Positions 3,495 to 58,700 are shown, counted from the stretch's first letter. The stretch: DNA of 64,000 nt from an uncultured Coriobacteriia bacterium (GCA_942493275.1 OW818687.1:2369918-2433917), one strand, 5' to 3'. The notes: a model not told the origin generated them from the letters alone. Program-made: numbers and translations.

Positions 3495-3497
3495 GGG

Positions 3498-5293: not shown

Positions 5294-5296
5294 AAC

Positions 5297-5410: not shown

Positions 5411-5420
5411 CAGTGCAATT

Positions 5421-31092: not shown

Positions 31093-32568
31093 TTACCTGA
31101 GGGTCAATCCGGCCAGCGCAGCACCCACGCCGACGATGAACGGCGCCACGCCCATAGCGAGGACGGCGATGGCGAACAGGGCGGCTCCACTTCCCCCTGC
31201 CGGTACAGCAGGCTCATCGCCCTGGACCGAATCGAAGTAAAGCGATCGCAGGACGGAACCGTAGTAGCCGAGCGAAACGACGGCACCCACGACGCCGACG
31301 ACCACCAGCACCGCATAGATCGAGGCCACGACTGGGTAGTCCGCAGCAAACGCCGAGGCGGCGAAGACCGCGGCCGCAAGGGACTGGAACTTGCCCCAGA
31401 AGCCCACGAACGGCGGGATGCCCGCGAGTGAAGCCATGATCCCCACCAGCGACACACCCAGAAGCTTGCTCGTGCGACCGAGACCGGCCAGCCCGGTGAT
31501 CGATCCGTCCCAGTCGGGACGCACCGTGCGGAATGCACCGATTGCGAGATATGCGCCGGTCGTCGCCACCGCGTAGGCGGTCACCTGGAGGATGGCGGCG
31601 GTGGCATTCAGTGCGGCCAACGCGAGCAACGAGTAGCCGACCTGTGCGATGCCCGCATATGCGAGCATGCGGGCATACGACGTCTGACGCAGCGCAGTGA
31701 ACGAACCAACGATGATCGAGATGGCGGCAAGGGCCGCGATGACCGGGAGCACATCTGAGCCAGTCGTGCCGAGCGGAACCTCGGGGCTCAGTCCCGCGGA
31801 CGCAAACGATGAAACGACGAGCACCAGCGCGGTCACGGACGCGAGCTTCACCGCTCCCGCAAGGAATGCCGATGATCCGAAAGGCGCGGTCTGGTACGCG
31901 TCCGGCGCCCACGAGTGGAAAGGCGCGACACCGGACTTGAACGCCATGGCTGCCAGGAGCATCAGTGCTCCGACGGTCGCTGCGCCAGAGCCGCCGAGCG
32001 CGCCCGACAAGGCGACGTAGATATCCTGATAGCCGCCCGTGGGCGCGACGAAAGCGAGCGTCGCGGCGAGGCCGGCAACGTAGACCGCGCTTGCTACGGC
32101 TCCCTGGATCAGGTACTTCATGGCCGCTTCGGACGACTCCGCGGTGCGCGCGATGGATACCAGAGCGTAGCCGCAGATCGCGGTAGTCTCGATTGCGAGA
32201 AGCAGAGTGACGAGGTCTCTGGACGCCACAGCCAGCCCCGCACCAAGCGCCGCCAGACCTATGAGCGCCGATGCGCTGACCGAGCGACCGCGGGAGTCAC
32301 CGCCGAACATGATCGCGGAACCGGCGAGCAAGAACACAAAGCCCGGAATCGCCGAGAAGCCCTGACCCGCTGCGAAGCCACCCAGCGCCACGCCGACCGG
32401 CACCGTCCAGCCGGCGTACATGCCGACACCACCCGCCGCAAGCAGGCCCGCGCCGGTGATCAGAGTGGCGATGCGCGGACGCCCCGCCACGTCGAGAATC
32501 AGTGCGAGGACGACAGACGCTGCCGCAAGAGCAAACGAGATCGCGAACGCCGAGGCGGTCGTCATCAC
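31093..32568 (-). CDS. nuoN: NADH-quinone oxidoreductase subunit N
   Basis: 491 aa polytopic antiporter-like subunit, last gene of the nuo operon. Confidence 0.88.
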   Translation of the reverse strand: MMTTASAFAISFALAAASVVLALILDVAGRPRIATLITGAGLLAAGGVGMYAGWTVPVGVALGGFAAGQGFSAIPGFVFLLAGSAIMFGGDSRGRSVSASALIGLAALGAGLAVASRDLVTLLLAIETTAICGYALVSIARTAESSEAAMKYLIQGAVASAVYVAGLAATLAFVAPTGGYQDIYVALSGALGGSGAATVGALMLLAAMAFKSGVAPFHSWAPDAYQTAPFGSSAFLAGAVKLASVTALVLVVSSFASAGLSPEVPLGTTGSDVLPVIAALAAISIIVGSFTALRQTSYARMLAYAGIAQVGYSLLALAALNATAAILQVTAYAVATTGAYLAIGAFRTVRPDWDGSITGLAGLGRTSKLLGVSLVGIMASLAGIPPFVGFWGKFQSLAAAVFAASAFAADYPVVASIYAVLVVVGVVGAVVSLGYYGSVLRSLYFDSVQGDEPAVPAGGSGAALFAIAVLAMGVAPFIVGVGAALAGLTLR

Positions 32569-34001
32569 AACCCGCCCCCCGTCAGCGCCGCTAGCACCTG
32601 CATCGAGGACGTGACGACGTCGGTCACGAGCGCCGGACGGACGCCAACAATCACGATTCCTAGTGCGAACGCGGCTCCGGCCGTCATCTCAAGCGCACCC
32701 AGGTCGCCGAGCGAGTCGAACCCGCCGATCGGACCCTGCACGGTCGCACGGACCGCACGCAGGTTGTATGCGGCAGCCAGGACGATCCCGAGCCCCACGA
32801 CAAGGACCCACCAGCCGAACGTGCCGAAGGCGGCGAGCGACGTCACGTACTCACCCGGGAAGCCCGAAAGTCCGGGAAGGCCGGCCGAGGCCAGGGACCC
32901 GAAGACAAACAGCACGGCCCACCGGGGCGCCACTGACCCCAGCCCACCGAACCGCGAGAGATCACGTGTATGGGCGCGCCCGTAGAGCGCGCCGACGAGG
33001 AAGAACAGCAGCCCGGCAACAAGCCCGTGGCTGACCATCGTGACCATCGCAGCGGAAAGCGACTCTGCGGTCGCGACCGCGATAGCCAGAAGCACGAATC
33101 CCATGTGGGCGACCGATGAGTAGGCCACGAGCCGCTTGAGGTCGGTCTGAACGAGTGCGCACGCGGCGCCCCAGACGATGCCCACAACGGCGAGAACCGC
33201 CAACACCCCCCGAGCTGCCTCAAACCCCGCGGGCGCTATCGGCATCGCGACGCGCATCATCCCGAACCCGGCCATCTTGAGCAGGACGCCGGCGAGAAGG
33301 ATCGAGCCTGCGGTAGGGGCTTCGGTGTGAGCATCGGCTAGCCAGGTATGCAGCGGAATCGCGGGGAGCTTCACGAGGAAACCGATCGCAAGCAGCCAGA
33401 ATGCGAGGTCGGGTGAGGGTATCTCGGAGGCGTTTGCGGCGATGCCGTTGATGTTCAGTGAGCCTGCGGTCGTGGCTACATAGATGAGCCCCGCCAGCAG
33501 AACCGCTCCGCCGGCGAACGTGTAGATCAGGAACTTCATCGCCGCGGCGCGGGCCTGCGAAGACCCCCATCCGCCGATGAGCAGAAACATCGGGATGAGG
33601 ACGGTCTCCCACGCGACGTAGAAGAGCACGACGTTCTCTGCGAGGAAGACAGCGGTCACGCCGGCCTGCACCACTAGAAGGAGCGCGTGGTGCCAGCCGG
33701 GACGATCCTCGACGTCCCACGAAGCGACCGACGCCATGACTCCGATGAATACGGTGAGCGCAACCAGAGGGAATGAGAGTCCGTCGATCGCCAGTGCCCA
33801 GATCCCCGAGCCGCTTCCGACGCCGAGGACCCGACCACCGCTTACCGCGTCCGTGCCCGCGAGGATGACGAGCGGTACCGCCATCGCAAGCGGGGCGAGA
33901 AGTGAGAACCAGCGGGGAGCCCGGGGCGCGCGATCGCCGATGAGCATCGACAGAACAGCCGCGCCGAGCGGCAGGAAGACCAGCAGGTCGACCGAGATCA
34001 C
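32565..34001 (-). CDS. nuoM: NADH-quinone oxidoreductase subunit M
   Basis: 478 aa antiporter-like subunit with WLADAHTEAPTAGS and YSSVAHMGF motifs. Confidence 0.9.
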   Translation of the reverse strand: MISVDLLVFLPLGAAVLSMLIGDRAPRAPRWFSLLAPLAMAVPLVILAGTDAVSGGRVLGVGSGSGIWALAIDGLSFPLVALTVFIGVMASVASWDVEDRPGWHHALLLVVQAGVTAVFLAENVVLFYVAWETVLIPMFLLIGGWGSSQARAAAMKFLIYTFAGGAVLLAGLIYVATTAGSLNINGIAANASEIPSPDLAFWLLAIGFLVKLPAIPLHTWLADAHTEAPTAGSILLAGVLLKMAGFGMMRVAMPIAPAGFEAARGVLAVLAVVGIVWGAACALVQTDLKRLVAYSSVAHMGFVLLAIAVATAESLSAAMVTMVSHGLVAGLLFFLVGALYGRAHTRDLSRFGGLGSVAPRWAVLFVFGSLASAGLPGLSGFPGEYVTSLAAFGTFGWWVLVVGLGIVLAAAYNLRAVRATVQGPIGGFDSLGDLGALEMTAGAAFALGIVIVGVRPALVTDVVTSSMQVLAALTGGGL

Positions 34002-34002
34002 G

Positions 34003-35862
34003 CTACCACCTCCCCATCCATACAGAAGCGACCAGCATCAGTGCAATCGCGACCACCATGACTCCCGCGTACGACTGCGCGTCGCCGGACTGCAGACGGC
34101 TGAACCCGCCGCCTAGCGCATGCGAAAGCCGTGCGAGCCCCATTGGCACGCCGTCAGCGATCATCCGGTCACCCCAGGCCCACAGGGCGCGGGACAGCCA
34201 GCGAGTCGGGCGAACAATCGTACGGTCGACGAACCCGTCCCACCCGAATGCGGCGGCCATAGCCCGCCACACGGAACCCGCTGCGTGCGCGGCGCGAACA
34301 TCGGCCTCGCGTGAAGCGAAGATGGTCCAGCCCGCCACGCCACCGATGGCGACGGCGGCAACCGCGGCCAGAGTCACCATCAGCACCGCGGGTTCCGGTT
34401 CGTGCCCAAGGGCCGTAGCCAAGCCGTCTCCGAAGAAGCCGAGGCCCACAGCGGGGACAGCCAGCAGCATCAGCGGGCCGGTCATCGACGCAGCCGACTC
34501 GTGGGCGTGAAGCCCGGGGGCGGCGTCTCCGAAGAACGCCAGGCGGGTGCTGCGGGCTACATACAGGGCGGTGAGTGCGGCGGTGACGAGAAGCAGGACT
34601 CCCACGCCGGGTGCCTCGTGCAACACTACCTCGATGATCTGATCCTTACTGAAGAAGCCCGAGAACAGCGGCACTCCCGCAAGAGCCGCGGAGCCGGCTA
34701 TCCACGCGATGAACGTGACCCGCATGGACTTTCGCAGTCCGCCCATCTCGTGAAGGTCCTGAGTGCCCGTCCCGTGTATCACCGAGCCGGACGTGAGGAA
34801 GAGCAGCGCCTTGAACGACGCATGTGTGACCAGATGGAAGAACGCCGGTACCCATGCACCCGCGCCGAGCGCCGCGAACATAAACCCGAGCTGGCTGATT
34901 GTGGAGTACGCGAGCACCTTCTTGATGTCGCGCTGTGCGACAGCGGCGAGCGCGGCGCCAAAGGCGGAGATCCCGCCGGCGGCCAGCAGCACGAGTCGGC
35001 CTTCGGGAGCCATCTCGAACAGGGGCCAGACGCGAGCGACCAGGAAGACACCGGCCGCCACCATGGTCGCCGCATGGATGAGCGCCGAGACTGGCGTGGG
35101 GCCCTCCATCGCATCCGGAAGCCACGCGTGCAGCGGGAACTGAGCCGACTTGCCAAGAGCACCGACGGCCAGGCATATCGCCGCGGCGGACGCCGTGGCA
35201 TAGGGCACAGCGCCCAGCCCGCCGAGAACCTCGGTGTAACTGTCGGCGCCGGTAGCGTTCCACAGCAAAGCGATGCCGAGAAGCAGTCCCACGTCGCCGA
35301 CCCGTGTGGTGAGAAACGCCTTGATAGCAGCGGCAGCCGCCGTTGGCTTGGAGTACCAAAAGCCGATGAGCAGATACGAACAGGCGCCGACCAGTTCCCA
35401 GCCGACGAACAGTGTTGTGAACGAGGCGGCGATGACGAGAAGGTTCATCGAGCCGGTGAACAGGGACAGGAGCGCAAAGTAGCGCACCCAGCCGGCGTCA
35501 TCCTTCATGTAGCCGGTCGAGAACACCACGACGCACGCGGCAACGACACCGACGACAACGAGCATGATCGCCGTCAGCGAGTCGACGCTCCACGAGATCG
35601 CGAACACCGACTCCCCCACCCGGAACCACGGGACCGAGCCCGCGGCCACGACGGCACTCGTGTTCCAGCCGTCTGCGTGCGCCGAACCGTTCGCGAGCGT
35701 CTGCGCAAGCGCCGCGGCACCGTAGCCGGCAGTCAGCAGCGGCCCCAGCAAGGTCAACCACGGAGCGACAGGGCGACTGAGGCGGACCGAGGCACCCAGC
35801 AGCAGCGCGAGAGCGAACGGCACCATCACCAGCAGCCACGGTGCAGAGATGAAGGAGCTCAT
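34003..35862 (-). CDS. nuoL: NADH-quinone oxidoreductase subunit L
   Basis: 619 aa, with GKSAQFPLHAWLPDAMEGPTPVSALIHAATMV and a C-terminal lateral-helix extension. Confidence 0.92.
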   Translation of the reverse strand: MSSFISAPWLLVMVPFALALLLGASVRLSRPVAPWLTLLGPLLTAGYGAAALAQTLANGSAHADGWNTSAVVAAGSVPWFRVGESVFAISWSVDSLTAIMLVVVGVVAACVVVFSTGYMKDDAGWVRYFALLSLFTGSMNLLVIAASFTTLFVGWELVGACSYLLIGFWYSKPTAAAAAIKAFLTTRVGDVGLLLGIALLWNATGADSYTEVLGGLGAVPYATASAAAICLAVGALGKSAQFPLHAWLPDAMEGPTPVSALIHAATMVAAGVFLVARVWPLFEMAPEGRLVLLAAGGISAFGAALAAVAQRDIKKVLAYSTISQLGFMFAALGAGAWVPAFFHLVTHASFKALLFLTSGSVIHGTGTQDLHEMGGLRKSMRVTFIAWIAGSAALAGVPLFSGFFSKDQIIEVVLHEAPGVGVLLLVTAALTALYVARSTRLAFFGDAAPGLHAHESAASMTGPLMLLAVPAVGLGFFGDGLATALGHEPEPAVLMVTLAAVAAVAIGGVAGWTIFASREADVRAAHAAGSVWRAMAAAFGWDGFVDRTIVRPTRWLSRALWAWGDRMIADGVPMGLARLSHALGGGFSRLQSGDAQSYAGVMVVAIALMLVASVWMGRW

Positions 35863-36161
35863 CAGCCCTTCACCTCCGTGAGCTCGTCGAGACGCACCTT
35901 GCGGGTGCGCTGGGCGACCGCGACGAGCAGAGCAAGGCCAACCGCGGCTTCTGCCGCAGCAAGAACCAGGACCAGCAATGCAAGCGCCTCGGACCGCGCA
36001 TCGGCTCCGGCCGCAGACCAGACCGGGAGCCCGACGAGCATCAGAATCGATGCGCCCATCAGCACTTCGATTGACGCCAGCACAGCGATGATGTCCCTAC
36101 GCGTCAGCACGCCGTACAGGCCGAGACCGAACAGAGCCGAGGACAGGATCAGCAGGCTCAC
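35862..36161 (-). CDS. nuoK: NADH-quinone oxidoreductase subunit K
   Basis: 99 aa, three TM helices, with GLYGVLTRRD...IEVLMGA typical of NuoK. Confidence 0.9.
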   Translation of the reverse strand: MSLLILSSALFGLGLYGVLTRRDIIAVLASIEVLMGASILMLVGLPVWSAAGADARSEALALLVLVLAAAEAAVGLALLVAVAQRTRKVRLDELTEVKG

Positions 36162-36643
36162 TCGCGCTCCCCTCCCGTCACCGCAACGACCGCGACAAGC
36201 GCGGCCAGAAGCAGCAGCCCGGCGAGCTCGAAGGGGACGAGCAGATCGCCGAGAAGCAGCGCCGCGACTGCGTCAGGAGAAGAACCTGCCGCCGAGGGGG
36301 TCTGAAGCGCCGGACGAAGAAGCATCACGAGCATCCCGGCGACACCGGCGGAGCCGACCCCCGCGAGAAGGTCGTGACGGCTCGTGAGGGTGGGACGGCC
36401 GGGCTCGGAGCGGTGGACCAGCATGATCGCGAACAACACCAGGACGAGGACGCCACCCACGTACAGGAAGATCTGCGCGAGGGCCAGCAACCCGAACCCC
36501 AGCCATGCGAACAGCCCCGCCAGGGCGGCAAGGAACGCTCCAAGCCCCAGGGCCAGTCGCATGACATCAGTGGTGAATAGCACGGTGAGGGCACCCACGA
36601 GAGCAAGACCCCCCAGCGCCCAGAACACGACGTCGGCACTCAT
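36158..36643 (-). CDS. nuoJ: NADH-quinone oxidoreductase subunit J
   Basis: 161 aa membrane subunit (LAQIFLYVGGVLVLVLF), in operon position between I and K. Confidence 0.85.
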   Translation of the reverse strand: MSADVVFWALGGLALVGALTVLFTTDVMRLALGLGAFLAALAGLFAWLGFGLLALAQIFLYVGGVLVLVLFAIMLVHRSEPGRPTLTSRHDLLAGVGSAGVAGMLVMLLRPALQTPSAAGSSPDAVAALLLGDLLVPFELAGLLLLAALVAVVAVTGGERE

Positions 36644-38778
36644 CGGCGCTCACCCGCTTCTTCGGGATTGGGCGGGCTGCTTTCACTACTGGGATGTCTC
36701 GTGCCATCTGGCCCCGCCAGACAGGCGACTCCAGACGCGGACCCGGCCGGAGCGTCAGCGCCCGTAGCACGGGTGCCCTCGGCGGGCCTCACCATCTCGT
36801 CCTTGTCGAACAGCGTGAGTGCCCTGGAGTAGAACGACAGCTCGTACTGACCGGTATGCTGGAGAGCGTCGGTCGGGCACTGCTCGGCGCACAAGCCGCA
36901 GAAGCAGCACTTCGACAGGTCGAGGTCGTAGCGCGTGACACATCGGGCACCGGGGTCGTCGACTCGTTCGACACGTATCGCGAAGTCGGGACAGGTGCGG
37001 GCGCAGAAGGTGCAGCCCACGCAGACCTCAGACGAGCAGCGCAGGCACCGTGCAGCCTCAGCAAGTCCCTCGAGCTGCGTGAACCCGAGCTCGACTTGAC
37101 GGAAATCGCGCGCGCGGTCGTCACCCTTCGCCATCGGCATCTTCGCGCGCCTGCGGGTCGACTCAACACCTGCGAGCGTCGCGGGCTGATACCGGGGATA
37201 CACGGGAACCGGACGGTACACGCGGCCCTCGCCAAGGTCCCGGTCTTCAAGGTAGCGGTGTATGGACTCCGCGGCCTCGTGGCCGCTGGCGACCGAGGCG
37301 ATGGCTGAGCCCGGGCCGGTTACGACTTCGCCGCAGGCGAAGACACCGGGGACGGCCGTGGTCATGAACGTTCCATCGACCGGCAGCAAGCCGCGATCGG
37401 TCAGCATGAGGTCCGAACCGCCGACGAGCTGCCCGAGATCGGGCGCCTGACCGATTGCGAAGACGACGACGTCGGCATACAGCTCGGTGAACTCCTCGGC
37501 GAACTTGGGGGCGAAGCGACCCTGAGCATCGAAGACGGACAGGCAGCTTTGCAGTCGCATGCCCGCGACCTTGCCGTTTTCAACGATGACGCTGTCAGGA
37601 CCCCACGAGCAGTTCGCGATGACCCCCTCATCGAGGGCCTCCTCGATCTCCCAAGGGTGCGCGGGAAGTTCGTCCATCGACTCGAGTGACGACAGCGTGA
37701 CCTCAGTAGCCCCGACCCGCAGCGCGACTCGAGCGCAGTCGACCGCGACGTTGCCACCGCCCACCACCAGTACGCGCTTGCCCTTGACCCCCGCGTCGCC
37801 CTTCCAGTTGCCGGCACGGAGGAACTCGAGCGCGCCGTGCACACCCTTGGCGTCAGCGCCCGGTATCGGCAGGATCCGGCTCACCTGCAGGCCCGCTGCG
37901 ACAAGCACCGCGTCGTACTCGCCGATGAGGTGGTCGATGGGAACGTCCACGCCGATCTCGACGTTGGTGTACAAACTCATGCCCATCCGCACGAGGTCGT
38001 CGATCTCGTTCGCGAGCACGTCACGAGGCAGACGGTACGCGGGAACGCCGGAGAGCAACGCGCCGCCCGGGCGGTCGTACTTCTCGTACGCGTGGACCTC
38101 GTAGCCGAGCTTCATGAGGTCGTAGGCGGCTGCCAGGCCGCTCGGTCCGCTGCCGATGACCGCGATGCGCTCGTCGCGCGTGACCGGCAGCTTCCGGACG
38201 CGCTCGTCGCGCAGCGGCTGGTACGCCTCGTACGCCATGCGGTGCAGCGGCCTGATGGCGATCGGCTCGTCGTAGTAGTTGCGCTTACACGCGGTCTCGC
38301 ACGGGTGGTGACATATCCGGCCGAGTACCCCGGGCATGATGTTGCGATCGCGCACGAGCTCATATGCCTCTGCAGGCCGCTTATCCGCCAGGTAGTACGA
38401 CTGACCACGGGCGTCGACGTTCGCGGGGCAGTTGCCGACGCACGGCGGGAGCCGATCAGCTTCGTAGAGGCCATCGATGAGGCCGTTGTACTCGGGTGAC
38501 GGCGACGTTATCGGCGGGACATCTTCGCGTCCGAGAACCCCTGTGAGCCGGAGCGCACCCCGCCAGCGGGGCGACAGCGTGATCTTCTCGGCAGGGTACT
38601 TGAGGGTCTCCGGGGTCATCCGCGAATAGCGGGCGGTGATGCCCAGGCCGGTCGCTATGCTCTTCCAGCGCTCGAAGAAGCCCTTGATGCCGGGGCTGAA
38701 GTCGTCGGTGACGCTCACCTTCACGCGGACGGACTCGGGAGTCCGGTCCGGCACCGTGTGCTTGATCCTCACAGCCAT
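36640..38778 (-). CDS. nuoI: NuoI (2x[4Fe-4S] subunit) with an internal ~500-aa GltD/NfnB-like NAD(P)H-FAD-FeS oxidoreductase insert
   Basis: 712 aa from ATG 38778, which overlaps the nuoH stop by 10 nt. The ends are NuoI-like (LKYPAEKITLSPRWRG; CVGCTFCARTCP; CCFCGLCAEQCP). The middle is GltD-like (CVGNCP, GRICHHPCETACKR, IAVIGSGPSGLAAAYDL, VLVVGGGNVAVDCA, GVFACGEVV). Confidence 0.85.
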   Translation of the reverse strand: MAVRIKHTVPDRTPESVRVKVSVTDDFSPGIKGFFERWKSIATGLGITARYSRMTPETLKYPAEKITLSPRWRGALRLTGVLGREDVPPITSPSPEYNGLIDGLYEADRLPPCVGNCPANVDARGQSYYLADKRPAEAYELVRDRNIMPGVLGRICHHPCETACKRNYYDEPIAIRPLHRMAYEAYQPLRDERVRKLPVTRDERIAVIGSGPSGLAAAYDLMKLGYEVHAYEKYDRPGGALLSGVPAYRLPRDVLANEIDDLVRMGMSLYTNVEIGVDVPIDHLIGEYDAVLVAAGLQVSRILPIPGADAKGVHGALEFLRAGNWKGDAGVKGKRVLVVGGGNVAVDCARVALRVGATEVTLSSLESMDELPAHPWEIEEALDEGVIANCSWGPDSVIVENGKVAGMRLQSCLSVFDAQGRFAPKFAEEFTELYADVVVFAIGQAPDLGQLVGGSDLMLTDRGLLPVDGTFMTTAVPGVFACGEVVTGPGSAIASVASGHEAAESIHRYLEDRDLGEGRVYRPVPVYPRYQPATLAGVESTRRRAKMPMAKGDDRARDFRQVELGFTQLEGLAEAARCLRCSSEVCVGCTFCARTCPDFAIRVERVDDPGARCVTRYDLDLSKCCFCGLCAEQCPTDALQHTGQYELSFYSRALTLFDKDEMVRPAEGTRATGADAPAGSASGVACLAGPDGTRHPSSESSPPNPEEAGERR

Positions 38779-39722
38779 ACCGACGCCACCACCCCGGCGA
38801 GCACGAGCTGCCCGATAGCCATCGGCGTGAGGACCTTCCACGCGAACGACATCAGCTGATCGGAGCGCATGCGCGGAAACGTCCACTTCACCCAGATCAT
38901 GGCTGTGGCTATGAAGGCCGTGAGCGCGACGAACACGATCGCACCGACGGGACCGGGGATACCCAGTCCGCCGCCGAAGAAGGTCGCAGCGCCGAACAGA
39001 GAGGCGGCGACGATGCCGCCGTACTCGGCCATCATGAAGATCGCCCAGCGGATCCCGGAGTAGTCGGCGAAGTAGCCCGCCACCAGTTCTGATTCCGCCT
39101 CCGGCAGGTCAAACGGCCCACGGTTGATCTCGGCGATCGAGGCGATGAAGTACACGAGGAAGCCGACAGCCATCAGCGCGAGCCACCACCAGCGCCATTC
39201 GCTGCGGATGTCGGCGGCCGAGAGCGAGCCCGCGAGGATGCACATCGACAGCACCGTGAGCGTTCTCGGCAGTTCGTAGCTGACCATCTGAGCTGCGGCA
39301 CGAACGCCGCCGATGGTGGCGTAGGTGTTGCGGCTCGACCATCCGGCCAGCAGGATTCCCAGGACCGAGATGCCGGGAACGGCGAGGAAGAACAGCGCAC
39401 CGGCGCGGATGTCGAAGGGCGCCCATCCCGCAGCGTAGGGCACAACGACGAGCGAGGCTGCGACCGGAACGAAGACGAGCAGCGGTGCCCACTTGAACGG
39501 GGTGACATCAGCCTGAGCAGGCGTGATGTCCTCCTTGAGCACGAGCTTCACGGTGTCGGCCAGCGTCTGGAGCAGACCCGCGGGACCGGCCTCCTGGGGG
39601 CCGAAGCGCATCTGGATGCGAGCTGAGACTTTGCGCTCCCACCACACGCCGATAAGCGCGGCGATCGCGATGAGCATCGCGGCAGCGAGTCCCCACAGGG
39701 CGCCGAGTCCGAAGCTGCTCAT
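38769..39722 (-). CDS. nuoH: NADH-quinone oxidoreductase subunit H
   Basis: 317 aa from ATG 39722 (MSSFGLGALW...WWERKVSARIQMRFGP). The ATGA overlap with the nuoD stop fixes the start; the track start 40031 is rejected. Confidence 0.92.
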   Translation of the reverse strand: MSSFGLGALWGLAAAMLIAIAALIGVWWERKVSARIQMRFGPQEAGPAGLLQTLADTVKLVLKEDITPAQADVTPFKWAPLLVFVPVAASLVVVPYAAGWAPFDIRAGALFFLAVPGISVLGILLAGWSSRNTYATIGGVRAAAQMVSYELPRTLTVLSMCILAGSLSAADIRSEWRWWWLALMAVGFLVYFIASIAEINRGPFDLPEAESELVAGYFADYSGIRWAIFMMAEYGGIVAASLFGAATFFGGGLGIPGPVGAIVFVALTAFIATAMIWVKWTFPRMRSDQLMSFAWKVLTPMAIGQLVLAGVVASVWL

Positions 39723-40864
39723 CGGTCGATCTCCCCAAAGACGGGGTCGAGCGAGCCGAGAACGACCACGAGGTCGGACAGCGTGTGACCGACTGCGAGC
39801 TGAGGCAGCAGAGCCATGTTGCAGAAGGCCGGAGAGCGCACCTTCATCCGGTACGGCCTTACGGAGCCGTCGGAGACCAGATACACGCCGAGCGAACCTC
39901 GTGCGCTCTCGATGTGGTCGTACGCGTCGCCGGGAGGCGGTGCGATGAGTCGCTGGAGTCCCTCGGACTTCACGAACCCGCCGGGCATCTGTGCGATCGC
40001 CTGCTCGATGATGCGACAGGACTCGTAGCACTCAAAGAGCCTGCATCGGCCGCGGTCGTAAGCGTCACCCCGCTCGCCGACGACGACGTCGAAGTCCATC
40101 CGCGGGTAGACCGAATAGGGATCGTGCTTGCGGAGGTCCCAGTTGACCCCGGAACCGCGGGCGGTGGGGCCGGATGCGCCCCATGCCACAGCGTCCTCGG
40201 CGGAAAGCACTCCGATTCCCTTGAGACGACCGCGGGCGATCGCGTTTTGGAAGAACAGGGAGTCGAGGTCCGCCAGGCCCGACCGGTGTGAGTCCGTGAA
40301 GCGGAGCACCGCGTCGGTCCAGCCCTCGGGTGCATCCATCGACACTCCGCCGGGCCGGACGTAGTTGTAGGTGAGGCGCGCGCCGCACAAGTCCTCGAAG
40401 AGCTCGACGACCCTCTCCCGCTGGTCGAACGCGTAGATGAACGCCGAGAAGGCGCCCGTATCGGCCGCGGACGCCCCGATGCCCATCATGTGGCTGGCGA
40501 TGCGCTGCAGCTCGCACACGATCACTCGGAGATACTCACCACGCTCGGGCACGCGGATTCCCGCGAGCCTCTCGACCGCGCGGCAGTACGCCCAGTTCGC
40601 GTACATGGAGCCGACGTAGTCGAGACGATCGGTGAGCGGCACGACCTGCAGGTACGTGCGGTTCTCGGCCATCTTCTCGATGCCGCGATGGAGGTAGCCG
40701 ATGACGGGCTGGGCCTTGACCACGACGTCGCCGTCGAGGTGAACGATGACCCTGCCGACGCCGTGGGTGGAGGGATGTGACGGGCCGACGTTGACGACCA
40801 GCTCCTCAACGGGCAACCCGTCGTCGGAGTGAGTCATCGAACGCGATTCGATCTCGACCGTCAT
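39719..40864 (-). CDS. nuoD: NADH-quinone oxidoreductase subunit D
   Basis: 381 aa, with GPSHPSTHGV, GYLHRGIEK and a C-terminal VLGSLDPVFGEIDR. Confidence 0.95.
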   Translation of the reverse strand: MTVEIESRSMTHSDDGLPVEELVVNVGPSHPSTHGVGRVIVHLDGDVVVKAQPVIGYLHRGIEKMAENRTYLQVVPLTDRLDYVGSMYANWAYCRAVERLAGIRVPERGEYLRVIVCELQRIASHMMGIGASAADTGAFSAFIYAFDQRERVVELFEDLCGARLTYNYVRPGGVSMDAPEGWTDAVLRFTDSHRSGLADLDSLFFQNAIARGRLKGIGVLSAEDAVAWGASGPTARGSGVNWDLRKHDPYSVYPRMDFDVVVGERGDAYDRGRCRLFECYESCRIIEQAIAQMPGGFVKSEGLQRLIAPPPGDAYDHIESARGSLGVYLVSDGSVRPYRMKVRSPAFCNMALLPQLAVGHTLSDLVVVLGSLDPVFGEIDR

Positions 40865-40874: not shown

Positions 40875-41336
40875 TCAGATGTAGTCAGGGCGCCTGATCA
40901 GGCGCGGATCGTCGTAGTCCTTGCGGAGCGGATGGCCCTCGAAGTCATCGGGCAGAACGATTCGCCGAAGATCCGGATGACCCTCGAAGACGATTCCGAA
41001 AAGATCGAAGACCTCTCGTTCCTGCCAGTCGGCGGCAGGCCATACGTCGAACAACGAGTCCACGCGAGGGTCTTCTCGGCTGACCTTGGTCTTTACAAAC
41101 AGCGCCGATGAGAGCGATCGGGACTGGAGGCGATACACGAGTGTGAAGAATTCGCCCCGGTCCACCGCGGTCACCATGCCGAGACGGTCGAAGCCGATGT
41201 CCCTCAGCTCTCGTGCGATCTCGAGCAGCTTGTCGCGGTTCACGCCGATGACGGCATCTCCGAACTCGAGCGAGAACAGCGGAGCAAGAACCGGTGAGAG
41301 CTCGGCGAGTCTGTGCTGCAGCTCATCGTGGTTCAT
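40875..41336 (-). CDS. nuoC: NADH-quinone oxidoreductase subunit C
   Basis: 153 aa, with WPAADWQEREVFDLFGIVFEGHPDLRRI typical of the 30-kDa subunit. Confidence 0.92.
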   Translation of the reverse strand: MNHDELQHRLAELSPVLAPLFSLEFGDAVIGVNRDKLLEIARELRDIGFDRLGMVTAVDRGEFFTLVYRLQSRSLSSALFVKTKVSREDPRVDSLFDVWPAADWQEREVFDLFGIVFEGHPDLRRIVLPDDFEGHPLRKDYDDPRLIRRPDYI

Positions 41337-41890
41337 TCGGCGTCACCATCCTCCCCCGGACGGGGAAGCTTCACGGCGTGCTCGCGGCGCTTTCCGGGCG
41401 CGATCGACTCGGTCTTCACGAGCTCGCGCAACTGGAGCACGCCGTCTTGCAGCGCCTCCGGACGCGGAGGGCAGCCGGAGATGTAGACGTCGACCGGAAG
41501 GAACTCGTCGGCACCGCGCACGACCGAGTAGGTGTCGTAGTAGAAGATGCCGCCCGATACGGTGCAGTTGCCCATGGCGATGACCCACTTGGGATCCGGC
41601 ATCTGGTCGTAGAGACGCCGCACCGCCGGCTTCATCTTCTCGGTGATGGTCCCCGCAAGGATCATGACGTCGGTGTGACGCGGATCGGGGCGCGGAAACG
41701 TGCCCATGCGATCGAAGTCGAACTTGTTGAAGGATGCGGCGATGAGCTCCATCGCGCAGCACGCCGTGCCCATGGGCATGGCCCAGAGGGACTGCCCGCG
41801 CGACCAATCGACGAGCGCGTCCACCGAGGTGAGGAGCACGCCGCCAGGTGTGCGGTCGAGGGCCGAGCCGATCCGATCTACGATCGCCAC
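41333..41890 (-). CDS. nuoB: NADH-quinone oxidoreductase subunit B
   Basis: 185 aa, with GTACCAMEL, ILAGTIT, MGNCTVSGG and GCPPRPE (N2 cluster ligands). Confidence 0.95.
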   Translation of the reverse strand: MAIVDRIGSALDRTPGGVLLTSVDALVDWSRGQSLWAMPMGTACCAMELIAASFNKFDFDRMGTFPRPDPRHTDVMILAGTITEKMKPAVRRLYDQMPDPKWVIAMGNCTVSGGIFYYDTYSVVRGADEFLPVDVYISGCPPRPEALQDGVLQLRELVKTESIAPGKRREHAVKLPRPGEDGDAE

Positions 41891-42246
41891 TCGAGCGCCC
41901 CCTTACGCCACGCGTACGCGAGCCCGAGCGCCAGGAACGCCACGAACGCGACAACCTCGGCGAGCGCGACCACGCTGCCGCGCAGACCGCTTGCGACCGC
42001 GAAGAGCAAGACCGCCTCGGCGTCGAAGAGCACGAACAGCATGGCGATCGTCGAGAACCGCATGCGGTTGGGCGCCCAAGGGTCGCCAGCCTGTTCCATG
42101 CCGCACTCGAAGGGAGTGAGCTTCTCGGAATCCGGATTGTGGGGAGCCAGCAGCTTGTTGGCAAGGAAGACCACGCCGATGAAACCCGTCGTCGCCGTGG
42201 CGAGTCCGAGTACGAAGAGTACAGCTTGGGCCCCAGCCCCCTGCAT
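41878..42246 (-). CDS. nuoA: NADH-quinone oxidoreductase subunit A
   Basis: 122 aa, three TM helices, with LTPFECGME...FVLFDAE motifs. First gene of the operon. Confidence 0.9.
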   Translation of the reverse strand: MQGAGAQAVLFVLGLATATTGFIGVVFLANKLLAPHNPDSEKLTPFECGMEQAGDPWAPNRMRFSTIAMLFVLFDAEAVLLFAVASGLRGSVVALAEVVAFVAFLALGLAYAWRKGALEWRS

Positions 42247-45281: not shown

Positions 45282-46775
45282 CTACTGCAGGTCGTTGGCT
45301 CCCGTGTCGACAGGAACCGCGATCGCAAGACGATCCACCGGCACGAGCTGGTACCCGTTGCTGGCGAAGAAGTCCTCCTGATCCATGAGTGAAGACTCTA
45401 GCAACCAGACGCGCTTCCGGGAGGATATTGCCGTGTCCAGATGCTCGAGACCCTCGGCCTTCTTGGATTCGCCGTTGAGGCCATCGAGATCGCATCGATC
45501 GAACAGCTCAGGGCCGTTCGATTCTCCCTTGAGGTAGTGATTCACGAGTACCACGGCGTAGTACTGACCTATCCCGACCTCGCCCGACTGGGCGGATCCC
45601 GCGCACTCCAGCACGGCCGCCTTGTAACTCTCGAGGTCGGCGCTCAGTTGACTAACCTCCCGATAGCTCGACACTCCGGTGAAGACCAGCGCTGCAGCCA
45701 GTACGACCACTGCCGATACTGCCACGGCACGCCTGGTCCGCCATGACGCGATAAGCCACGAGAATCCGACACCGCTGAGCACCGCCAGCATGGAGTAAAA
45801 CGGCATCTGCACCGGGACGTCGCTGTACCTCTCGCCAAGTAGGAACGTCGCGAGCCACAGGAGGAACAGTCCCGCCAAGAAGGGCCAGTACCTTCGCCTG
45901 AGGCCGAGGACGACCACACCCGTCAGCGCGAACGCGAGCGCAAACGAGAACCCGCCGATCTGCTCGGCCTCCTTCGCGAGTGCCGACAGCAGCGTCAGGT
46001 CGGGGGCGATCGCTCCGATATGGCCCGGGCCGTAGAAGTAACCTTCGGTGTGCGGGAGCACGGCGGCCGCCAGCACGGCTCCCGCAACCCCCACCCAGAG
46101 CAGGACGAAGCGTCGAGTAGGCCTCAGGAGCACGAGGAAGGGCACCGCCAAACCCGTGGATGGAGTCACCAGGCACGCAGACGCGAACGCGAGCCCTGCG
46201 AGAACCGGCCTGTCCATCAGAATCAGATAGACGGTCAACAGGAAGAAGCACAGCTGCATCACGTAGAGCTCGGCGTAGACGGCGTTCTCCAGAAACAGGT
46301 ACGTGGTCGCAAGGACCGCGGCGGATCCAATCCCGGCGCTTACCCGCCGCACAAGCAGTTGGGCAATGGCACACACAAGTCCAACGCACGCCGCTGCAAA
46401 CAGCGCACTCATGAGGTTGAGCGCGATGTCCATCGGCAGTGGCACCACGCGAGTGAATGCGATGCCGATGAGGTTGTAGCCCATGTGGTAAGGCTGCTCG
46501 AACGCTCTTCCGCCCGCGATTCGCTCAGCGTAGATGGGCGCATCGCCGAAGTTCAGCGCGTTTGGAACCAGCGACGCGAAGACCGCGAATGCGACCAGCG
46601 CGGACCCTAACGACGTGAGCGTGGCAGTACGGGTGGGCCGTGACGGAAGTGACCCCAGGAACGACTCTCTGGCACGCAGGAACTCATCCCAGAGGACTCG
46701 AGTACCTGAGCGTTTTGACGGTGCGTCTGAGCCAGAAGCAGGCATCCAACTCCCCCGAGATCGCAGCATGCTCAC
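45282..46775 (-). CDS. Polytopic membrane protein, probable GT-C-fold glycosyltransferase (DUF2723/PMT-like) with soluble C-terminal domain
   Basis: 497 aa with at least 10 predicted TM helices, a first-loop FGDAPIYAE motif reminiscent of the GT-C acidic loop, and a ~110-aa hydrophilic C-terminus. The function is inferred only from topology and the adjacent GT2 gene. GC is lower than in core genes. Confidence 0.45.
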   Translation of the reverse strand: MSMLRSRGSWMPASGSDAPSKRSGTRVLWDEFLRARESFLGSLPSRPTRTATLTSLGSALVAFAVFASLVPNALNFGDAPIYAERIAGGRAFEQPYHMGYNLIGIAFTRVVPLPMDIALNLMSALFAAACVGLVCAIAQLLVRRVSAGIGSAAVLATTYLFLENAVYAELYVMQLCFFLLTVYLILMDRPVLAGLAFASACLVTPSTGLAVPFLVLLRPTRRFVLLWVGVAGAVLAAAVLPHTEGYFYGPGHIGAIAPDLTLLSALAKEAEQIGGFSFALAFALTGVVVLGLRRRYWPFLAGLFLLWLATFLLGERYSDVPVQMPFYSMLAVLSGVGFSWLIASWRTRRAVAVSAVVVLAAALVFTGVSSYREVSQLSADLESYKAAVLECAGSAQSGEVGIGQYYAVVLVNHYLKGESNGPELFDRCDLDGLNGESKKAEGLEHLDTAISSRKRVWLLESSLMDQEDFFASNGYQLVPVDRLAIAVPVDTGANDLQ

Positions 46776-48161: not shown

Positions 48162-49397
48162 TCAGCCTGCGAGAAATACCGACGGATTGGCAATTCGGAT
48201 GTAGCTCGACATCCGCGGGTCAGAGAACTGATAGACCCCTTTGGAGCAGCGGTGAAGAATCGCTGAGTAGTCATCTGCGACCAGCTTCTGAAGGTAGTTG
48301 TTGAGCGAGCCTTGCGTAATTGGCGCGCCAGTCAGCTTCTCCACACCGGCACGCAACTCCTCCGCGCGAAACTCGGTCTTGTCCAACATGGCCGCGGCCT
48401 CCAATACGTGACGGTACATGTCCGTCCCATAGGAGCGAACCGCGTGTGCGTATTGCCGGAGCAGAGTGCCCTCCGCATCCTCGACAGCCAGGTTCATCGC
48501 CGACTCGAGGCACTTACGATCCACGATGGTCAGGTCGTTTGCTACGGCCTCCTCCGCGCACTTAAGTGCGAGCAGATGGGTGAAGTGTGGGTAGCCGGAG
48601 CTCAGTTTGACAATCTCTTTGGTGACTGTGGCATCGAAATCAAGTCCGACTTTCTCAGCCCCCTCCACGACGATCAGTTCTAGCTCATCCGCATTCATGC
48701 GGGGCAGACGCGTCTCCTTCAGACAGCGTTGGACGGACTCGTGGCCGCCGGTGAGCTCCTCTGCCGTCTGCGCGATGCCCACAACGAGGACCTTGAAGTT
48801 CGAACCGTTGTCGCTAAGAAGCTTGATCAGTTCCGCCAAGTTGCCCTTGTCCCCAGCCGTGGCAATCCGATCCGCTTCGTCGATGTACAGCAAGCCCTCG
48901 CGGTCTTTCAAAGCATCGGCCACGACTGACGGGGAAAATTGCTGCACGGAGTAGGTCTTCTCTGTCGCCCGCTCGCTGCCAATCTCTGCAGCGGCCACGG
49001 GGATCATGAGTCCGCCCTTACCGTGCTCTTTGTGCACCGTCTTCTTCGAAGTGAGGTCGACTTCAATCCCGAAATCGGCGAGCACCGGCGCGAGTACGGT
49101 CTCAAAAGTGTCGCTGGAGTCGCACCGCTTGGTGTACAGCTTGCCACTAATGACCTGCTTGATAAGAAGTTCGGTTGCGACATTTGCCAATGAGCTCTTC
49201 CCCACGCCGCGTTCTCCGTACAGGAGGGCATGCTGACCAGGCGTGTTGATCTGCTCAAGTATCTTGCCGACCTCCTTCTGGCGACCGAAGAAGAGTTCGA
49301 CCGCCTGTACCGGTCTATGGGGCGTGAAGACCTCTCGGACGCCGGACTTTCGGATCTTGGTCTCGCGCGCAATTCCAAACAGGTCAGGCTTGCCCAC
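48162..49397 (-). CDS. AAA+ ATPase (ORC/Cdc6-like or archaeal-ATPase-like) with C-terminal winged-helix-like domain
   Basis: 411 aa. FFGRQKEVGKILEQI...ALLYGERGVGKSSLAN (Walker A), LLYIDEADR (Walker B), and a C-terminal ...LQKLVADDYSAILHRCSKGVYQFSDPRMSSYIRI. GTG start preceded by GGAGGAG. Confidence 0.7.
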   Translation of the reverse strand: MGKPDLFGIARETKIRKSGVREVFTPHRPVQAVELFFGRQKEVGKILEQINTPGQHALLYGERGVGKSSLANVATELLIKQVISGKLYTKRCDSSDTFETVLAPVLADFGIEVDLTSKKTVHKEHGKGGLMIPVAAAEIGSERATEKTYSVQQFSPSVVADALKDREGLLYIDEADRIATAGDKGNLAELIKLLSDNGSNFKVLVVGIAQTAEELTGGHESVQRCLKETRLPRMNADELELIVVEGAEKVGLDFDATVTKEIVKLSSGYPHFTHLLALKCAEEAVANDLTIVDRKCLESAMNLAVEDAEGTLLRQYAHAVRSYGTDMYRHVLEAAAMLDKTEFRAEELRAGVEKLTGAPITQGSLNNYLQKLVADDYSAILHRCSKGVYQFSDPRMSSYIRIANPSVFLAG

Positions 49398-50631: not shown

Positions 50632-50711
50632 CACCACTGAAAACGCCCCTTCGAGTATCTCCGGAGAGACCCCAAAGGGGCGTTCTGTTACAGATGGTGG
50701 GCGATACTGGA
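50632..50711. repeat. Direct repeat copy B: genuine tRNA-Val 3' end plus its terminator (proximal att-like junction)
   Basis: See copy A. It overlaps tRNA positions 59-75 (50695-50711) and the hairpin at 50641-50683. Confidence 0.8.
50637..50683 (-). terminator. Rho-independent terminator of tRNA-Val
   Basis: The reverse strand reads AACGCCCCTTtggggtctctccggagatactcgAAGGGGCGTTTTC: a 10-bp stem, an inner TCTCCGGAGA palindrome, and a trailing T-run. Confidence 0.75.
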
Positions 50712-50769
50712 TTTGAACCAGTGACTTCCACCGTGTGAAGGTGGCACTCTCCCGCTGAGTTAATCGCCC
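50695..50769 (-). tRNA. tRNA-Val (anticodon CAC), CCA encoded
   Basis: Hand-folded 75-nt cloverleaf. Acceptor GGGCGAT/ATCGCCC, D stem ACTC/GAGT, anticodon stem CCACC/GGTGG with loop TTCACAC, T stem ACTGG/CCAGT with loop TTCAAAT, discriminator A, 3' CCA. Confidence 0.95.
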
Positions 50770-55715: not shown

Positions 55716-58700
55716 ATGAGTAGGCGTTCCGTGGTTCGGAGCAAGTGGACGACCGTCACCTGGTATGCGATGGCGGTGACTGCGCTTGTCGCAATCGCAG
55801 CCGTTATCCCGGCGACCGCGCATGCAGCGTACGTCCCAACCACGCGCGACCAGATGATCTTCGAGCGCTACGTGGTCCAGGGTCAGGGCGACTACCCACA
55901 GGCGATCACGGTGTCGCCCTTTGGTGATGTCTACTACACCCACTCGGACTACTGGGACGGCCTCGACGCGAGCAACAGTGTCCACGGCGTGACCTCTGAG
56001 GGCATCGAGTTCTTCAATGTGGGTGCGAGCGACTACAGCCAGTTCATGTGGCCGGACGGCCTCGCCCTAACCCCCGACGGTGACCTCGTAGTTGCCGATA
56101 CCAGCGAGACAGGCGACGGGGACCACAACCGTCTCAGGATGTTCGATACTTCAACCGGTTCCCTCATCCGCAATGTCGGCGGTCCCGGTACCGGGCCCCT
56201 CGGCTTCAACATGCCCTACGGTGTGGCAGTCAGCGACAGCGGACACGTCTACGTCGCAGACACCGGCAACAACCGGATTCAGATCATCGACGCCGCTACG
56301 GGCTCCTTCGAGTCTATGTGGTCCGTTCCCACCACCGTGGGCACCTCCCCCGATGGTCTTGCCTTCGACCCCGACGGCAACCTGTGGGTGGTTCTCACCG
56401 GCAACAACCGCGTGGCGAAGTTCTCGCCGACAGGCACTCTGCTCGACACCATCGACTCGTGGCAGGAGGTCGACGAGCAAGGCGACCCGACGGGCACCGG
56501 TACCTTCTGGGGCCCCAAGGACGTGGCTGTCGACCACTTCGGCGTCGTCTACGTGGCCGACACGGAGAACTCACGTGTCGTCCGTTTCGACTCTGAGGGC
56601 GGATGGCTCGCCACCCTCTACGGTGCCGATACTCCCGAGGCGGCGTTCTCCTACCCCACCGACGTCGACTGCGACGTCTTCGGCAATCTGTACGTCGCCG
56701 ATGCGTTCAACGATGCGGTCTACAAGATGAGCCTCGTCATGGCCGACCCCGACACGGTCCCGCCGGTGACGACGTCCAACGTCACGTCGGTGTGGCAGAA
56801 GGGCCCCGTCAACGTGACCCTCTCGGCCACGGACGCATCCCTGTCGGTTGAAGCGACCTACTACTCCATCGACGGCAGCGAGCCGTCGGTCCTCTACACG
56901 GGCCCGTTCCAGATCACGGCCGAGGGCACCACCCAGCTGCAGTACTACTCGGTGGACACCGCCGAGAACTCCGAGTTGGTCAAGTCGCAGGACGTGAGGA
57001 TCGACAACACGAATCCTGCGGCTGCCATCTCCCTGAACCAAGTCACCTACGGATACGAAACCACCGTGACGATGTCTGCGACTGACTCGCTCTCGGGCGT
57101 CAAGAACATCGTCTACATCCTGGACAACGGTACTCCCAAGTTCTACACCGGCCAGTTCAAGGTCATGGGCATCGGACTGCACTTCATCGACTACTGGAGC
57201 GTCGACAACGCAGGCAACGTCGAGCCGTTCAAGCACGCCTGGTGCAGCATCGAGGCGCCCGACGCCAACCCCCCCGTGTCGTACTCCGATGCGCCTTCCG
57301 GCTGGGTCAACCAGAACGTCTCGGTTGAGATCACCGCAACCGACGACGTGTCCGGCGTCGACGACATCTACTACTCGAGGGACGGCTCCAACCCGACAGT
57401 CCCGTACACCGGACCACTGACGTTCAACGCGGAGGGCATCAACGTCCTCAAGTACCACGCTATCGACCTGCGCGGAAACGCCGAGACTGTCCACACCGAC
57501 AACATCAAGATCGACAAGTCCGTGCCGACCGCTTCCAGTGACGCGGTCGCAAGCTACGTCGACAGCGCCACCATCAACTTCCAGGCGTCGGACTCGGTCT
57601 CTGGCGTTCTCGACTTCGTCTACCGATTCAACGACGGCGCGTGGCAGCATGGATACACGTTCAACACCACCCAGTGGGGTAACCATCGTGTCACGTGGTA
57701 CGCCACCGACCAGGCGGGCAACACGTCTTCCCAGCGGACGGACTACTTCACCGTTCTGCAGCCTGACAACGAGCCTCCTATCACCGGTGACGACATCCCC
57801 AGCTCATGGGTCAGAGGTCCTGTCTCGATCAACTTCGACGCACACGACGTCATCTCGTCGGTCGCGGCGACCTACTACTCGTTCGACGGCTCGTACCCCA
57901 CCAACGTCTACGACCCGCCGCTGACCTACAACGTCGAGGGCGAGCACGAGGTGAAGTTCTACTCGGAGGACTCCCGCGGCAACAAGGAACCGGTTACCAC
58001 CAAGACGGTGCGTATCGACAACACTCCCCCGGTTTCCACGAGTGATGTCGAAGAGTTCTACATGGGCACCGCCCACATCACCTTCACCGCTTCCGACTCG
58101 CTGTCCTCGGTGAACTACCTCTACTACCGTCTCGACGGCGGCACGTGGACTCAGGGACGCTCCGGCGACGTGCTGACCACCAGCGCCATCGGGAATCACA
58201 CGCTCGAGTACTACGCCGTAGACACGCCTGGCAACCGGGAGACGACACAGACCGCGAACTTCCGTCTGGTTCCGCCGGATACCGAGCCCCCCGTCACCAC
58301 CATGATTGCGCCGACCGGCTGGGTGAAGGGGCCCGTGCAAGTCGAGTTCTCCGCATACGACACGACGTCGACCATAACCGGTACCTACTACTCGCTCACC
58401 GGTGGAACGCCGATCAGCGCCTACACAGGCCCGATCACCGTCTTCGCCGAGGGGACCACCTACATCACGTACCGCTCAGTCGACGAGTGGTCGAACTGGG
58501 AAGACATCAAGTCCGGAGAGGTCAAGATCGACAACACCGCTCCTTTGACCAGCACTGATGCGACGTCCTCCTATGTCGACCAGGCCATCGTCACGTTCTC
58601 TCCGTCGGACCCCTTGTCCGGGGCCAAGACGACCTATTACAAGATCGACGGCGGCGCGTGGCAGCAGGGCTCCTCGGCCTACGTGACCGGCTACTACTAC

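Follow-up and report, generated by a model that had tools for sequence, protein, structure and literature searches.

The stretch of 64,000 nucleotides analysed here, from an uncultured Coriobacteriia bacterium (GCA_942493275.1 OW818687.1:2369918-2433917; hereafter the window, with positions counted from its first letter), carries a nuo operon for complex I that comprises 11 genes, all on the minus strand and in the order nuoABCDH-I*-JKLMN. The gene at the nuoI position, designated nuoI*, is a continuous open reading frame (ORF) for a protein of 712 residues in which NuoI is combined with a flavin and iron-sulfur (FeS) cassette of the NfnB/GltD type. The original prediction, made from the sequence alone, had described an ORF at 36640-38778 between nuoH and nuoJ and had read it as a NuoI interrupted by a GltD/NfnB-like module. 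The position of the ORF was confirmed, its strand, which had been left unstated, is minus, and the interrupted NuoI was borne out by matches to Pfam, NCBIfam and PDB entries. All motifs quoted at the time are present in the protein, some of them shifted by one residue relative to the numbers given (FFERWKS starts at residue 34, and EAARCLRC occupies residues 574-581). The genes of the operon are as follows:

41878..42246, minus strand: nuoA; orthologues at the same place in related loci (tblastn), with Oxidored_q4 found there in homologous operons
41333..41890, minus strand: nuoB; Oxidored_q6; ACCAME, GNCT and GCPP in the sequence, that is, the Cys ligands of cluster N2 are present
40875..41336, minus strand: nuoC; Complex1_30kDa
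39719..40864, minus strand: nuoD; Complex1_49kDa (E 1e-90) and direct reading of the sequence
38769..39722, minus strand: nuoH; 317 residues from the ATG at 39722, a start that was checked; NADHdh (E 3e-97)
36640..38778, minus strand: nuoI*; NuoI with the NfnB/GltD-type flavin/FeS cassette; Pfam, NCBIfam and PDB matches
36158..36643, minus strand: nuoJ; Oxidored_q3
35862..36161, minus strand: nuoK; Oxidored_q2
34003..35862, minus strand: nuoL; Proton_antipo_N and Proton_antipo_M
32565..34001, minus strand: nuoM; Proton_antipo_M
31093..32568, minus strand: nuoN; orthologous to the final gene of related operons (tblastn)

The ATG of nuoI* at 38778 lies in an overlap of 8 nucleotides with the nuoH stop, and the nuoI* stop and the nuoJ start share ATGA. 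Such overlaps are the usual mark of translational coupling in an operon. An alternative GTG start, which would extend the ORF to 38886, is located 118 nucleotides inside nuoH and is therefore unlikely to be the true start.

Direct reading of NuoD revealed the motifs PSHPSTHG and LDPVFGEIDR as well as the quinone-site residues His34 and Tyr83, which we take to be the equivalents of H38 and Y87 of Thermus, and the absence of the NiFe Cys ligands. Together with the N2 Cys ligands in NuoB, these features identify a true complex I core and not a relative of Mbx or Ech. No NuoE, NuoF or NuoG domains were found in the operon or in the scanned genes across the window, in agreement with the earlier claim that the operon lacks nuoE/F/G.

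Within nuoI*, the following segments were distinguished, with the confidence of the structural model given as predicted local distance difference test (pLDDT) values:

38689..38778, minus strand: N-terminal extension, residues 1-30; variable or absent in alignments; pLDDT ~30
38539..38688, minus strand: NuoI N-terminal segment, residues 31-80; a helix at 31-53, then YPAEK...SPRWRG
38449..38538, minus strand: variable linker, residues 81-110; its length varies, and it is absent in the homologues P0123 and P0126
38209..38448, minus strand: FeS/helical domain of the cassette, residues 111-190; C113xxxC117P, C156xxxC160xxxC164 and H179
37243..38181, minus strand: Rossmann domains for flavin adenine dinucleotide (FAD) and nicotinamide adenine dinucleotide (NAD(H)), residues 200-512; G209SGPSG214 and G340GGNVAVD347; aligned with NfnB, GltD and DPD; pLDDT >90
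37681..37689, minus strand: S364-L365-E366, at the place of the YRR motif that binds the 2'-phosphate of nicotinamide adenine dinucleotide phosphate (NADPH)
37030..37242, minus strand: permuted segment, residues 513-583; DFRQVELGF…EAARC578LRC581, corresponding to the canonical NfnB N-terminus but placed behind the flavin domains
36775..37029, minus strand: NuoI 2x[4Fe-4S] ferredoxin domain, residues 584-668; C586/589/592/596 and C624/627/630/634, then the NuoI-specific C-terminal stretch
36640..36774, minus strand: C-terminal tail, residues 669-712, and stop codon; variable, of low complexity and not conserved; pLDDT <50

Both ends of the protein were assigned to NuoI. Residues 37-78 align with residues 26-67 of NDUFS8 (E 2e-5) and 4-44 of Nqo9 in the respective PDB chains, and residues 579-666 align with the NDUFS8, Nqo9 and NuoI chains including their C-terminal stretch (best E 3e-20). 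The match to the NuoI model TIGR01971 is split, with profile positions 1-36 on residues 44-79 (E 5e-5 if searched alone) and positions 40-121 of 121 on residues 582-662 (E 2e-20). By this alignment, the insert follows the PR(W)RG segment of NuoI and precedes the first CxxCxxCxxxCP motif, at model positions 36-40. Pfam places Fer4_7 at residues 586-638, and among the NCBIfam models those of NuoI rank above the generic ferredoxin models for the C-terminal ferredoxin part, the C-terminal domain scoring 72.6 bits against NuoI and 29 bits against PRK12771. Y61, P62, R73 and G74 of the N-terminal segment are invariant, as are both CxxCxxCxxxCP motifs (C586/589/592/596 and C624/627/630/634) in 120 of 120 homologues. 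The N-terminal extension of ~30 residues in the Coriobacteriia reads PDRTP..V…VSVTDDFSPG, and in many of these members the tail ends in a conserved DS(S/A)P.NPED; NuoI and NfnB have no equivalent of either.

The best PDB sequence matches were 9bov_A (E 4.5e-89) and 8oh5_C (E 5.3e-83), followed by NfnB/NfnL, GltD and DPD. An AlphaFold2 model based on a diverse alignment of 66 sequences reached a pLDDT of 86.9 and a predicted template modeling score of 0.84, with the FeS parts confident too, and a Foldseek search with this model ranked 8oh5_C, 9bov_A and 9n5u_A first, then NfnL/NfnB, GltD and DPD. A model computed from 35 sequences of 68-100% identity was discarded (pLDDT 58.5, all FeS parts <50). 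Pfam identified Pyr_redox_2 at residues 204-499 and Fer4_20 at residues 111-184, the latter covering profile positions 30-106 only. The GxGxxG motif for FAD and the nucleotide site of the second Rossmann domain are both present and invariant.

The missing part of the Fer4_20 region does not precede the cassette, as it does in the canonical linear order with EAxRCxxCxxxxCxxxCP first. Residues 111-511 align with residues 46-460 of NfnB (4ylf_B), and residues 543-583, RRAKMPMAKGDDRARDFRQVELGFTQLEGLAEAARCLRC, align with residues 4-44 of the same chain and with residues 7-48 of NfnL (5jca_L, 5vj7_A). Judged by these alignments, the cassette is a circular permutant of NfnB, with residues ~111-583 making up a predicted module of FAD and 2x[4Fe-4S]. 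The observation that the join is not a simple end-to-end fusion, which had been based on the placement of EAARCLRC, thus holds and finds its explanation in the permutation. Relative to the canonical motif C1xxC2xxxxC3xxxC4P, the chain of the cassette runs from C3 (C113) to just past C2 (C581). Since C2 and C3 are four residues apart and belong to one cluster in the canonical protein, the two ends of the cassette would meet in space, and this geometry makes a cassette ideally suited to being inserted into a host.

Fifteen Cys residues, His179, R249 and both glycine-rich nucleotide motifs are invariant in all 120 closest homologues, which speaks against the degeneracy of the cofactor motifs that the original prediction had named as a refuting outcome. 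The 15 Cys are also kept in relatives of 35-51% identity. When residues 111-190 of the cassette are aligned with StnC 96-172, H179 falls on StnC K170 and on a Glu of NfnB, and R249 is the equivalent of NfnB R201 and StnC R239. In StnC, K170 is a ligand of the FAD-proximal cluster (PDB 8oh5 study). A Lys at the His179 position, as in StnC, is found in the more distant NuoI fusions P0129, P0150, P0159, P0165 and P0228. By homology, the proximal cluster would be held by C117, C156, C160 and probably H179, and the distal cluster by C113, C164, C578 and C581. This set of seven Cys and one non-Cys candidate ligand is in line with the two-cluster helical domain of the GltD/NfnB/DPD type.

For the NuoI part, the predicted ligands are C586, C589, C592 and C634 for N6a and C596, C624, C627 and C630 for N6b, where the first Cys of NuoI motif 1 presumably contributes to N6a as in Thermus Nqo9. 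Canonical NuoI takes electrons from cluster N5 of NuoG. In the protein studied here, C581 sits 5 residues ahead of C586, a spacing by which the chain would hold the exit cluster of the cassette beside the first NuoI cluster. We also considered that C586 might be shared between the GltD motif, as its third Cys in a CxxCxxxxC spacing, and the NuoI motif. This idea was dropped as unnecessary, because homology already assigns this role to C113 and the 15 Cys divide exactly into 7 + 8.

The nucleotide specificity was assessed at the position of the YRR motif. In five NADPH-using chains (9n5u_A, 9bov_A, 8oh5_C, 5vj7_A and 5jca_L) this motif falls on S364-L365-E366, and S/A/C-L-E is found at this place in 120/120 closest homologues. 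An acidic residue closing the second beta-strand is the classic signature of the NAD type. In NfnB, Y310-R311-R312 holds the 2'-phosphate of NADPH, and DsrL proteins use NADP(H) when they carry YRR and NAD(H) when they carry S/T, L/V and F/E/H (PMC7596348). The cassette of Moorella-type HdrA has C-L-E at this position, and the purified M. thermoacetica complex containing this HdrA oxidises NADH. We therefore predict NADH as the nucleotide of the window lineage. The YRR motif is retained in the diverged NuoI fusions P0126, P0127, P0129, P0150, P0159 and P0165, and these YRR-bearing proteins are predicted to use NADPH.

The same architecture was found in 120 full-length homologues of 68-100% identity from many independent assemblies, which excludes the assembly chimera that the original prediction had wished to see checked. 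The survey of related genomes that it had also proposed located the fusion in Coriobacteriia, in Elusimicrobia and in diverged lineages. A scan of one genome collection yielded ~59 species-level Coriobacteriia loci with full-length nuoI* (58-85% identity, best segment), all of them in a nuoA-B-C-D-(H)-I*-(J)-K-L-M-N context, and an Elusimicrobia metagenome-assembled genome (MAG; UBA5214, locus L050) encodes an orthologue of 643 residues and 49% identity at the same place in the operon. When 1.84 billion cluster representatives were searched exhaustively, ~12 further 50%-identity clusters with NuoI ends (35-51% identity) came to light, and all six diverged clusters that were looked up are embedded in nuo genes. 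One further lineage (L089 200-7000) has nuoB-C-D-I* on one strand and nuoA-H-J divergent on the other. A homologue search seeded with P0129 retrieved MAGs of Anaerolineae, Actinobacteria, Firmicutes, Ca. Aquicultor and Ca. Subteraquimicrobiales. Every named source of a homologue is a MAG or a metagenome, and public annotations read 'FAD-dependent oxidoreductase' or 'glutamate synthase beta subunit-like'. Within the operons examined there was neither a second nuoI nor a gene for an NfnA/PyrK-like [2Fe-2S]-FAD partner.

In P0228 (L088 9001-10902), the cassette is located between NuoI Cys motif 1 and motif 2 and not ahead of motif 1, and the chain resumes as NuoI shortly ahead of motif 2. This different site suggests that at least two independent insertions into NuoI took place. 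A neighbour-joining tree of the cassettes, with the NuoI-type members in 3-4 separate groups, is in agreement, but the tree lacks support values, its deep branches are star-like, and it was not relied on. Taken together, we lean towards the existence of a family of 11-subunit complexes I in which NuoEFG is replaced by a module inserted into NuoI, with at least two insertions at two sites and with NADH and NADPH variants.

Several of these loci have additional features. On either side of the Elusimicrobia operon (L050 1-21941) lie many extra genes for NuoL/M-like antiporters, one of which encodes 906 residues with a long C-terminal extension; these extra genes suggest an enlarged pumping module. 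NuoD of L089 is unusually long (475 residues), and the nuo operon of L088 lies back-to-back with an rnfCDGEAB-apbE cluster. In L084 (132-4301), a gene for a StnC/NfnA-like protein of 1,389 residues (Fer2_4, Fer4_20, Pyr_redox_2, molybdopterin) is located directly upstream of nuoA of a nuoI*-type operon, so that two copies of the cassette occur in different hosts in one genome. In L019, L054-L059 and L068, which are MFD nanopore-derived MAGs, and only there, the nuoI*, nuoD, nuoL and nuoM matches are split over several frames. These breaks look like indel sequencing errors and not like pseudogenes.

With regard to function, NADH would give a hydride to the FAD of the cassette, from where electrons would leave singly to the proximal and then the distal cluster. 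They would continue through N6a and N6b to N2 in NuoB and from there to the quinone site in NuoD/NuoH, and quinone reduction would be coupled to the pumping of protons through NuoH/J/K/A and NuoL/M/N. One polypeptide would thereby do the work of NuoE, NuoF and NuoG. A built-in input module appears to be the best-supported explanation of the sequence features described above, and we estimate the probability that nuoI* encodes the NuoI of a true 11-subunit complex I, with the inserted cassette as a single-polypeptide replacement of NuoEFG, at roughly 0.6. The StnC/NfnA cassette in a NuoG-like host, which in StnC feeds an FeS chain, provides a precedent, and the intact N2 ligands and quinone-site His and Tyr indicate an intact downstream path. 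It also counts in favour of this reading that the scanned genes of the window offer no NuoEFG as an alternative input and that the cultivated Anaerosomatales lack NuoEFG as well. Electron-transfer competence, the distances, the direction of flow and quinone as the acceptor are what we infer for the complex.

Some points weigh against this interpretation. The whole protein scores 89.3 bits against TIGR01971, whose cut-off is 113.05, and stays under the cut-off of the PRK05888 equivalog models as well; the low NuoI score can be attributed to the splitting of the match by the insert of ~500 residues. The absence of nuoE/F/G refers to the 64-kb window, which is part of a 2.5-Mb contig, and nuoEFG, a canonical nuoI or partner proteins may be encoded elsewhere in the genome. 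The prediction of NADH is based on one motif rule and one characterised relative. Two cultivated Anaerosomatales, relatives of the host, have 11-gene nuo operons without NuoEFG and possess neither complex II nor complex III, and their quinones were 'not detected' (PMC9686372). The NuoI of these isolates may or may not be fused, and the lack of detectable quinones makes the acceptor of the host complex uncertain. In the same study, ferredoxin was proposed as the electron donor on the ground of the missing NuoEFG.

Since complex I and GltD-type modules are in general reversible, the same wiring might operate with reversed flow or another outlet, with menaquinol (driven by the proton-motive force) or a different donor passing electrons through the cassette to reduce NAD(P)+. 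The cultivated Anaerosomatales are H2/formate-oxidising anaerobes with Wood-Ljungdahl-type autotrophy (PMC9686372) and need reduced pyridine nucleotides, the gltD-related subunit of mbx-like operons has been read as the site of NAD(P)+ reduction (PMC4758237), and the YRR kept in some family members would suit an anabolic reductant. However, the operon is of the nuo type with a quinone-site NuoD and not of the mbx type, the window lineage has the NADH-type motif, and the isolates lack complexes II and III and any known quinol source. No sequence feature fixes the direction of flow, and we regard reversed operation as a tentative second choice that is rather unlikely.

We consider it improbable that the FAD of the cassette bifurcates or confurcates electrons and couples NAD(P)H with ferredoxin or another partner, although the FAD of the homologous NfnB does so and R249, the counterpart of NfnB R201 and StnC R239, is invariant. 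The nearest relatives of the cassette also reside in bifurcating complexes (Moorella-type HdrA, StnC, NfnA), P0228 adjoins an rnf operon, and L084 has the StnC-like gene beside nuoA. Yet the only visible electron exit leads through two clusters to N6a, the operons examined contain no NfnA/PyrK-like partner gene, the same kind of cassette has lost bifurcation in StnC, and His or Lys takes the place of the NfnB Glu as fourth ligand of the proximal cluster. That nuoI* encodes no working subunit of complex I at all, but a DsrL/PRK12771-like soluble enzyme, a degenerate structural insert or an assembly or frameshift artefact, deserves hardly any credence, for although the combination of cassette and C-terminal ferredoxin exists as a soluble architecture (NF009410, 438 bits) and the public label is 'FAD-dependent oxidoreductase', the N-terminal segment and C-terminal stretch are specific to NuoI (72.6 versus 29 bits), the place between nuoH and nuoJ is fixed in >60 operons devoid of another nuoI, all cofactor motifs are invariant, and the architecture recurs in >100 independent assemblies.

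Outside the nuo operon, the window contains an ABC-F ATPase gene as the next gene upstream and housekeeping genes downstream of it. An FMN riboswitch (RF00050; flavin mononucleotide, FMN) was detected at 5295-5412 on the minus strand (115.5 bits), directly upstream of four co-directional ORFs at 1780-5293 (minus strand; 376, 221, 417 and 153 residues) that look like a candidate riboflavin biosynthesis operon. Three ORFs, at 45282-46775 (minus strand), 56571-57686 (minus strand) and 62093-63595 (plus strand), encode 497, 371 and 500 residues with no Pfam match at E <= 1e-5. They are located in or near a region of polysaccharide biosynthesis genes (epimerases, glycosyltransferases, a sugar transferase) and a STAND NTPase gene at 48162-49397. 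The sole transfer RNA gene of the window is tRNA-Val (CAC) at 50695-50769 on the minus strand.

The donor of the 11-subunit complex I has been sought for some time. Moparthi and Hägerhäll (2011) looked for a partner protein and found none, and a 2024 paper still describes the electron donor as an open question. With a probable donor module encoded in the operon itself, the donor question of 'headless' complex I becomes directly testable in these microbes. If nuoI* indeed encodes a built-in input module, no self-sufficient NAD(P)H:quinone proton pump smaller than the respective complexes would be known, metabolic reconstructions with ferredoxin as the donor to the NuoEFG-less complexes of these lineages would be wrong, and database annotations would need correcting. 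The distribution of one cassette over NuoG-like, HdrA and NuoI hosts, with two sites in NuoI, would then clearly exemplify evolution that is both convergent and modular, and structural studies and engineering would gain an attractive minimal system in an NADH:quinone pump of five clusters and 11 polypeptides.

The protein shares with canonical NuoI, Nqo9 and NDUFS8 (TYKY) the helix with YP..E…PR(F/W)RG, the two CxxCxxCxxxCP motifs, the C-terminal stretch and the position between nuoH and nuoJ, and differs from them by ~500 extra residues at profile positions 36-40 and by the absence of nuoG from the operon. The role proposed for the cassette equals that of the NuoEFG N-module, in which electrons pass from NADH to a flavin and through an FeS chain to N6a. 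NuoEFG consists of three subunits with FMN in NuoF and five or six clusters. The module described here is not homologous to it, with FAD in a two-Rossmann GltD fold and two [4Fe-4S] clusters in one polypeptide. Other 11-subunit cores without NuoEFG are fed by FpoF (F420H2 dehydrogenase) or by ferredoxin via NdhS/NdhO (cyanobacterial NDH-1). These routes employ separate subunits or diffusible donors with other cofactors and substrates, and involve no insertion within NuoI.

The same permuted cassette, with the trailing EAxRCxxC and insertion in the middle of a host protein, is present in StnC of the Sporomusa ovata StnABC complex (8oh5) and in the Bfu-type NfnA (9bov, 9n5u). The cassette of StnC spans residues 102-565 as the GltD-like domain of a NuoG-like protein, and its FAD is non-bifurcating and passes electrons from NADPH into a linear chain of clusters. 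The FAD of NfnA in Caldicellulosiruptor NfnABC is likewise described in a 'middle NfnB-like domain'. In contrast to the NuoI of a membrane complex, however, the host of the cassette in StnC and NfnA is a NuoG/FdhF-like soluble protein of a bifurcating HydBC-type complex, and both keep YRR and the Lys ligand, to which S-L-E and His correspond in the window protein.

Moorella-type HdrA contains the closest cassette outside the Nuo proteins (42-45% identity over residues 65/104-601). HdrA of Moorella and Neomoorella has 1,480-1,520 residues with a trailing EEAKRCLNC and is encoded in an hdrCBA-mvhD-metVF cluster. It belongs to a soluble complex of the Wood-Ljungdahl cluster, the MetFV-HdrABC-MvhD methylene-tetrahydrofolate reductase, and the host is HdrA, not NuoI. 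In DsrL/PRK12771-type proteins, too, a 2x[4Fe-4S] ferredoxin domain is attached to the C-terminal side of a cassette, and the model NF009410 (PRK12771, 'NAD(P)-binding protein') covers residues 107-640 of the window protein. These proteins are soluble, and they have neither the NuoI N-terminal segment nor the NuoI C-terminal stretch. A soluble PRK12771 form of ~700 residues (cassette, ferredoxin and MvhD-like domain) is encoded beside metV/metF and acs genes.

The original prediction regarded the architecture as uncharacterised. Full-text searches of the literature found no description of a GltD/NfnB insert in the NuoI of a nuo operon, and none of its circular permutation, of variants for NADH and NADPH or of the two insertion sites; they found one related statement. 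The architecture is widespread in uncultured lineages. For the mbx-like operons of Thermotoga and Magnetococcus, which have an Mrp antiporter and a NuoD with vestigial NiFe Cys, Degli Esposti (2015; PMC4758237) noted in one sentence that the place of NuoI is taken by a gltD-related flavoprotein. The two cases, compared here by description only, share a GltD-related flavoprotein at the place of NuoI. The window operon itself is not mbx-like, as it encodes NuoA, H, J, K, L, M and N and a quinone-site NuoD without NiFe Cys. Its component parts, namely complex I, an NfnB-like cassette and a domain insertion as in StnC, are all of known kinds.

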